Shown: one piece after another, positions 1-1,192 of the stretch
Layout of the letters: the number at the start of each line of letters is the position of its first letter
How positions within the stretch are numbered: position 1 is the stretch's first letter
NCBI RefSeq assembly: GCF_003334355.1
Contig: NZ_QOWP01000084.1
DNA: 1,577 nucleotides
Direction: 5' to 3' (one strand)
Source: Escherichia coli
GTDB taxonomy: Bacteria; Pseudomonadota; Gammaproteobacteria; Enterobacterales; Enterobacteriaceae
Translations under genes and position numbers: made by a program
Notes under the pieces: generated by a model
The model's input: the letters and a program-made list of their open reading frames with translations, nothing else
The model's database searches: none
What the model was told of the DNA's origin: nothing

Positions 1-1192
1 GGTTTATGACCCGACGGTACAGTTTGAGTTCTGGTTCTCGGAAAAACGGATTGCGGATATCAGGCAGGTTGAAACCACAGCCCGCTATCTTGGCACGGCG
101 CTGTACTGGATAGCTGCCAGTATCAATATCAGGCCGGGCCATGATTATTATTTTTACGTTCGTAGTGTGAACACCGTTGGCAAATCGGCATTCGTGGAGG
201 CTGTCGGTCGGGCGAGCGATGATGCGGAAGGTTACCTGGATTTTTTCAAAGGCAAGATAACCGAATCTCATCTCGGCAAGGAGTTGCTGGAAAAAGTCGA
301 CCTGACGGAGGATAACGCCAGCAGACTGGATGAGTTTTCGAAAGAGTGGAAGGATGCCAACGATAAATGGAATGCCATGTGGGCTGTCAAAATTGAGCAG
401 ACCAAAGACGGCAAACATTATGTCGCGGGTATTGGCCTCAGCATGGAGGATACAGAGGAAGGCAAACTGAGTCAGTTTCTGGTTGCCGCCAATCGTATCG
501 CGTTTATTGACCCGGCAAACGGGAATGAAACGCCGATGTTTGTGGCGCAGGGCAACCAGATATTCATGAACGACGTGTTCCTGAAACGCCTGACGGCCCC
601 CACCATTACCAGTGGTGGAAATCCACCGGCATTTTCCCTGACACCGGACGGAAAGCTGACTGCTAAAAATGCGGATATCAGTGGCAGTGTGAATGCGAAC
701 TCCGGGACGCTCAACAACGTCACGATTAATGAGAACTGTCAGATTAAGGGGAAACTGTCAGCCAATCAGATTGAAGGCGATATTGTCAAAACGGTCAGCA
801 AGTCTTTCCCCCGCACGAACAGTTATGCCAGTGGCACCATCACGGTAAGAATCAGTGATGATCAGAAATTTGACCGGCAGGTCATGATACCGCCAGTGTT
901 ATTCCGCGGTGGTAAGCATGAGAATTTCAACAGTAATAACCAACAGTCATACTGGTATTCAACCTGCCGGTTAAGAGTGACCCGCAATGGTCAGGAGATT
1001 TTTAATCAGTCCACGACGGATGCTCAGGGCGTATTTTCCTCAGTTATAGATATGCCTGCCGGACAGGGGACGCTGACACTGACATTCACCGTATCTTCAT
1101 CAGGAGCGAATAACTGGACACCAACAACCAGTATCAGCGATCTGCTGGTTGTGGTGATGAAAAAATCCACAGCAGGTATCAGTATCAGCTGA
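1..1192 (+). CDS. J: Tail-tip host-specificity protein J (central tail fibre), C-terminal 396 codons plus stop; 5'-partial, gene begins upstream of the window
   Basis: The reading frame is open from base 2 (first codon gtt at 2-4) to the TGA at 1190-1192, with no in-frame stop upstream of the GTG at 167 that the ORF track used as a start. The translation ([99 protein letters not shown]...) matches my recollection of the C-terminal part of lambda gpJ. The position immediately upstream of lom is the lambda gene order. Identification rests on recalled homology, not a search. Confidence 0.9.

Follow-up and report, generated by a model that had tools for sequence, protein, structure and literature searches.

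The window, by which we mean the whole stretch of 1,577 bases analyzed here, contains the 3′ part of a lambda-type tail gene J, a spacer of 66 bases between J and the following gene that carries a terminator-like hairpin, and the beginning of lom. Its features are listed below, with residues (aa) numbered from the first visible codon of J and with domain names following PMC11101478.

2–1189, plus strand: last 396 codons of gene J, a reading frame open to its stop codon
2–712, plus strand: lambda-like part of J, corresponding to lambda J residues 737–973 (96.6% protein identity, 94.8% nucleotide identity)
5–247 (aa 2–82), plus strand: end of the second Ig/FNIII-like domain (Pfam Ig_J_second, E 1.4e-29)
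329–709 (aa 110–236), plus strand: helical shaft and beta-prism, the "central straight fibre" (Pfam Phage_Tail_Tip, E 4.1e-34)
713–775 (aa 238–258), plus strand: junction segment, the start of the divergent block, with the first conserved cysteine
776–1189 (aa 259–396), plus strand: Ig-like beta-sandwich receptor-binding domain of the A8 type
1190–1192, plus strand: TGA stop codon of J
1210–1238, plus strand: intrinsic-terminator-like hairpin GGGCGTCA-GAAA-TGACGCCT followed by TTTTTTATT (T6), found by a terminator scan
1259–1577, plus strand: 106 codons from the 5′ end of a gene for an Ail/Lom-family outer-membrane protein, truncated by the end of the window

The visible part of J belongs to a lambda-type tip attachment protein J, as seen from profile match, domain order and gene context. 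The NCBIfam family lambda_TipJ (NF049904) aligns with aa 1–396 at profile positions 736–1163 of 1163 (E 4.5e-205); its score of 683.5 bits lies below the 1950-bit whole-protein cut-off, the window holding the last third of the protein. The Pfam domains follow one another in the order Ig_J_second, Phage_Tail_Tip and Ig_GpJ_C, the last of these (PF12421) covering aa 272–396 (E 2e-36). The gene order visible in the window is limited to lom after J, the upstream tail genes lying outside it; the complete order was read from the two nearest relatives, a prophage of E. coli Ec1119 and the Escherichia phage 2H10, which match the whole 1577-base window at 99.8% and 98.9%, respectively. In both, the annotation runs from the tape measure gene through M, L, K and I to J, then lom, then a long side tail fibre gene. 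Open reading frames of 41–48 aa on the minus strand also lie within the region, antisense to the well-supported gene J. The product of the downstream gene has a signal-peptide-like N-terminus and NCBIfam matches to Ail/OmpX-type families, its start is preceded by GAGAGGT at nt 1246–1252, and matching records name it Lom or Ail/Lom.

The initial annotation had described J as a mosaic, lambda-like with scattered conservative substitutions up to nt 712 and divergent from about residue 180 of the visible part. Comparison with J of lambda (NC_001416) supports the mosaic and the sharp step at nt 712/713, but the position in the protein is 237/238 rather than residue 180. Residues 1–237 align gap-free with lambda J 737–973 at 96.6% identity, the eight differences all being conservative (R/Q, T/S, A/T, R/K, V/I, D/E, D/E and N/S), while residues 238–396 share 43% identity with lambda 974–1132, with three small indels. 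J is thus neither uniformly similar to lambda nor uniformly divergent along its visible length, two patterns that would each be incompatible with a mosaic. Nucleotide identity falls in the same way, from 94.8% over nt 1–712 to 55.1% over nt 713–1189. In a maximum chi-square scan, the strongest break (chi-square 279) came after nt 713, with differences at 36 of 712 sites to the left and 211 of 461 to the right; none of 2000 permutations reached this value, the largest giving 21.7, and chance fluctuation of identity is ruled out by this test. The decrease in GC content that had been noted in the divergent part is also real but modest (51.3% in nt 1–712, 46.8% in nt 713–1189), and because some upstream 120-nt windows are equally low (46.7–47.5% at nt 241–480), GC content by itself is weak evidence and insufficient for a claim of mosaicism.

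Relative to lambda, the divergent block does not stop at J but also takes in the intergenic region and the larger part of lom. The first 2920 nt of J in the Ec1119 prophage are 88–100% lambda-like; beyond them, identity drops to about 53% and remains there over the tip, the spacer and the greater part of lom, recovering to 88% where lom ends. Within the lambda-like stem, five of the eight amino acid differences cluster in residues 16–53 (nt 47–160 of the window), and nucleotide identity to lambda is 87–88% at nt 61–180, as compared with 95–98% around it. From this local pattern, nt 47–160 may represent a distinct, small stretch of mosaicism within the second Ig-like domain.

The divergent part is a homologous domain rather than an unrelated insertion, as the initial annotation had proposed. 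In addition to the Ig_GpJ_C match, a tblastn search with the domain alone recovered lambda J (E 4e-33), and the landmarks singled out earlier all align with their lambda counterparts (NENC with AENC, YSTC with YSMC, DMPAG, and the terminal (V/I)(M/I)KK...GIS). Structure prediction and comparison with the lambda J receptor-binding domain, likewise proposed there, led to the same result. AlphaFold2 modeling (seven alleles) gave a confident beta-sandwich at about aa 259–390, with strands within aa 261–387 and pLDDT of 76–95, and Foldseek matched the model to the lambda receptor-binding domain (J residues of about 995–1132) in 8XCJ (E 2.3e-20) and 8XCK (E 4.8e-20). The indels and most of the substitutions that separate this tip from lambda map to the stretches connecting the predicted strands, a distribution that fits loops that set specificity; of the three indels, one follows FPRTN and another lies at SSSGANNW. 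The Phage_Tail_Tip match ends at aa 236, so the break at 237/238 lies directly after the shaft match. The junction that follows (aa 238–258), modeled with low pLDDT as a monomer, probably makes up the final layers of the beta-prism in the trimer, above the receptor-binding domain. Some conservation among alleles remains in it, and similarity to phage 434 persists to about nt 750.

A domain of this kind might have diverged in place, through rapid adaptive change in a receptor arms race and without recombination. Selection is known to act on the receptor-binding domains of J proteins, in lambda and phi21 a few J mutations are enough to change receptor use (PMC11336670), and nonsynonymous divergence from lambda is high downstream of the break (pN 0.367 by the Nei-Gojobori method, dN 0.50), as compared with a pN of 0.015 upstream. 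Positive selection, however, leaves synonymous divergence unraised, whereas here pS steps abruptly at nt 713 from 0.175 (dS 0.20) to a saturated 0.744. Near-identical flanks are found on both sides of a different domain in other phages, the tip allele of the window occurs on different J backbones, including those of Stx1a phages and CP-1639, and neither the window nor the annotation of the Ec1119 prophage shows any sign of a local mutational mechanism such as a diversity-generating retroelement. Divergence in place was rejected on the ground that synonymous saturation is confined to the region downstream of nt 713, and we regard it as very improbable. Saturation in the tip only points instead to an old allele imported by recombination, rather than to local fast evolution.

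Import by recombination is also the reading that matches the arrangement seen in related phages. In the stem and in lom, phage 434 and Stx2c_PV98-693 match the window at 95% and 97%, respectively, but in the tip they share just 57%; with flanks shared and the domain different, the tip behaves as an exchangeable cassette. Relative to 434, the left edge of this cassette lies at about nt 750 and the right edge at about nt 1220, inside the terminator hairpin, with identity of 100% from nt 1241 onward. In Stx2 phage 1717 the stem differs (65%), the tip is closer to that of the window (71% of nucleotides, 78.6% of residues), and the downstream DNA is identical. The hairpin has a predicted RNA folding energy of −14.7 kcal/mol (z −4.2), and none of 200 shuffled sequences was as stable. 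Its counterpart in 434, GGGCACCA-GAAA-TGGTGCCT, carries a two-base change in each arm, and the changes are compensatory, so that pairing is kept; lambda has a different and weaker hairpin in the same place. The lom gene of the window shares 97% nucleotide identity with that of 434 and of Stx phages, 79% with that of 2G7b and 57% with lambda lom, and in phage 4A7 another gene takes its place; lom and the J tip therefore assort independently.

The initial annotation had suggested that the divergent region may specify a different receptor, and work by others bears this out. [quoted passage not shown] The two entries, both released on 2026-01-28, are titled "Closed state of A8 gpJ 713 central tail fiber" (9WCA) and [quoted passage not shown] (9WCB), and the latter contains three OmpC porin chains alongside A8 gpJ. 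A literature search found no paper describing 9WCA and 9WCB; the OmpC complex is known here from titles and chain contents. A8 itself comes from a study in which lambda gpJ was combined with the C-termini of natural gpJ variants, with a switch from LamB to OmpC (Brödel et al., Nature 2024; PMC11338833), A8 being lambda gpJ with the C-terminus of one such variant. In an MG1655 strain lacking lamB and ompC but supplied with OmpC on a plasmid, A8 rendered 95% of cells reporter-positive at an MOI of 84, as compared with 1.9% at an MOI of 135 for wild-type lambda gpJ (PMC11338833). The A8 DNA printed in the supplement of that study is a natural sequence about 97% identical to the window, with machine-reading noise allowed for, and its switch from lambda to donor sequence falls between window nt 662 and 703, adjoining the natural breakpoint.

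Given these data, we put the probability at about 0.9 that nt 713–1189 encode the natural A8-type receptor-binding module of J, joined as a diverged tip to a lambda-type body, and that this module recognizes OmpC rather than LamB. Close identity to the last 159 residues of lambda J, which contain the LamB host-range determinants and are the mark of a lambda-type LamB-binding tip, was not found (43% of residues, 55% of nucleotides), while identity to the A8 chain of 9WCA and 9WCB is complete over aa 238–396. The use of OmpC was measured on a lambda-J graft of the identical domain, and the native protein has eight substitutions in its visible stem, with a side tail fibre of their own in its closest relatives. 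The receptor question has thus already been answered by others, as OmpC, and the allele is known and well characterized, with its structure solved. In a separate comparison, phi21 was considered as a carrier of the A8-type allele and rejected, as its J is about 94% identical to lambda at the nucleotide level and its native receptor is LamB (PMC11336670). A receptor-prediction preprint of 2026, which deals with Drexlerviridae J proteins only, contains nothing on the A8-type allele.

It might be argued that the tip is of the A8 type but that its native receptor is a different or additional one, such as OmpF or an OmpC homologue of another enterobacterium, with OmpC being one of several. In keeping with this, A8 and a second chimera, 1A2, counted jointly, gave efficient delivery for 21 of 23 OmpC variants, A8 with a suitable side fibre delivered into Klebsiella pneumoniae ST258 (both PMC11338833), J proteins of lambda and phi21 come to use two or three porins after few mutations (PMC11336670), and DNA 97% identical to the window is found in a Salmonella phage record. 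Yet delivery into the strain deleted for lamB and ompC was measured with plasmid OmpC and depended on the OmpC variant supplied (PMC11338833), the solved complex is with OmpC (9WCB), and the receptor-binding residues are identical to those of A8, making a different primary specificity unlikely. We consider this alternative improbable and retain OmpC as the receptor of the A8-type tip.

Two further ideas, weighed together as a pair, we consider rather unlikely. The first is that the native tip, with its eight stem substitutions and the long side fibre of the relatives, might accept receptors beyond or other than those of the A8 graft, for instance OmpC homologues of several enterobacterial genera. 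The second is that the conserved junction and the J-lom terminator may serve as preferred crossover sites, which would make the tip a true exchangeable cassette.

A mechanism for the A8-type tip can be proposed by analogy with lambda. In lambda, each subunit of the trimeric Ig-like tip pushes four of its loops into the LamB trimer from the extracellular side; once docked, the tip spreads at its bottom and narrows at its top, followed by a twist of the beta-prism, a flip of the helical shaft and opening of the tail tip (Ge and Wang, PMC11101478). In its open state, the lambda tip clashes with a loop of OmpC (PMC11101478). Since the A8-type tip shares its fold with lambda and its deposited structures likewise comprise a closed and an open state, we infer a relay that is started by OmpC and is mechanically the same. 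The J trimer would use the loops of its three terminal Ig-like domains to dock onto the extracellular face of the OmpC trimer, the tip would then open, and the change would run up the beta-prism and the helical shaft until the tail tip opens for DNA ejection. In the gene, body and tip are joined within a conserved segment, probably at the foot of the beta-prism, and the exchanged cassette has its end in or near the J-lom terminator.

The A8-type tip is widespread in E. coli. A megablast search with nt 730–1189 against 20,395 complete E. coli genome records found it at an identity of at least 99% in 1250 records and at 95–99% in a further 258 (about 1,500 in total at 95% or more); matches of any kind were present in 2572 of 5426 genomes. 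Lambda's own tip (query 3045–3501) was found by megablast in just 98 genomes, this count covering lambda-type copies only, and the matches listed were laboratory strains such as DE3 lysogens. As the A8-type tip is far commoner and the listed lambda-type matches are laboratory strains, the LamB-binding tip is a rare allele in nature. In a phage collection, an identical or 98%-identical tip was seen in Stx1a- and Stx2a-converting phages, CP-1639, 2H10 and Turner. The same comparison included MW057783.1, named "Campylobacter phage CJLB-4" (48,361 bp), which has a lambda-type J tip, the same identity to the window as lambda and a lambda-like length; it looks like lambda sequence under an unexpected name.

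As a discovery, the locus has little to offer, since publications or database entries already cover its sequence, receptor and structure, and the tip is among the commonest J tips in E. coli prophages. Its use lies in annotation: carriers of the window are predicted to use OmpC, not LamB, for irreversible adsorption, a point of relevance when the host range of Stx-converting and other lambdoid prophages is predicted. It also provides a clean example of tail-tip module exchange, with the left break directly after the Pfam shaft match and the right break at the terminator.

Among named J tips, that of A8 is the closest, the difference being that A8 is a laboratory graft on lambda J, whereas the window holds a natural gene in which eight stem residues differ and the break lies after nt 713. 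The lambda J tip shares with the window the Pfam family PF12421, the Ig-like fold, the C-terminal position, a near-equal length, the DMPAG and KK..GIS motifs and, likely, the trigger mechanism. It differs in sequence (43% protein identity, three loop-sized indels) and in receptor, lambda binding LamB and the A8 type OmpC. The tip of 434 occupies the same gene position between similar flanks (stem 95%, lom 97%), and 434 is likewise reported to use OmpC (PMC11101478), but its tip is only about 46% identical in protein and 57% in DNA, is several residues longer in two loops and lacks the second cysteine, with YTGYG where the window has YSTC and lambda YSMC. The pair of cysteines is therefore no conserved requirement of the domain family. 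The 434 tip is a separate allele class, so that any use of OmpC in common has a basis other than close sequence similarity.

Other natural tips form a graded series within one domain family, with amino acid identities to the window of 82% for the 4A7/ev017 type, 78.6% for the type of Stx2 phage 1717 and 60% for the 2G7b type; all end in (S/A)TAGI(S/T)IS, and they differ mainly in the loops between strands. The 1A2 gpJ of Brödel et al., which differs from A8 in the OmpC variants accepted (PMC11338833), appears to carry a recoded 2G7b-type tip (2G7b 3586–4185, ending MKKATAGITIS), a link drawn from noisy machine-read sequence with frameshifting errors.
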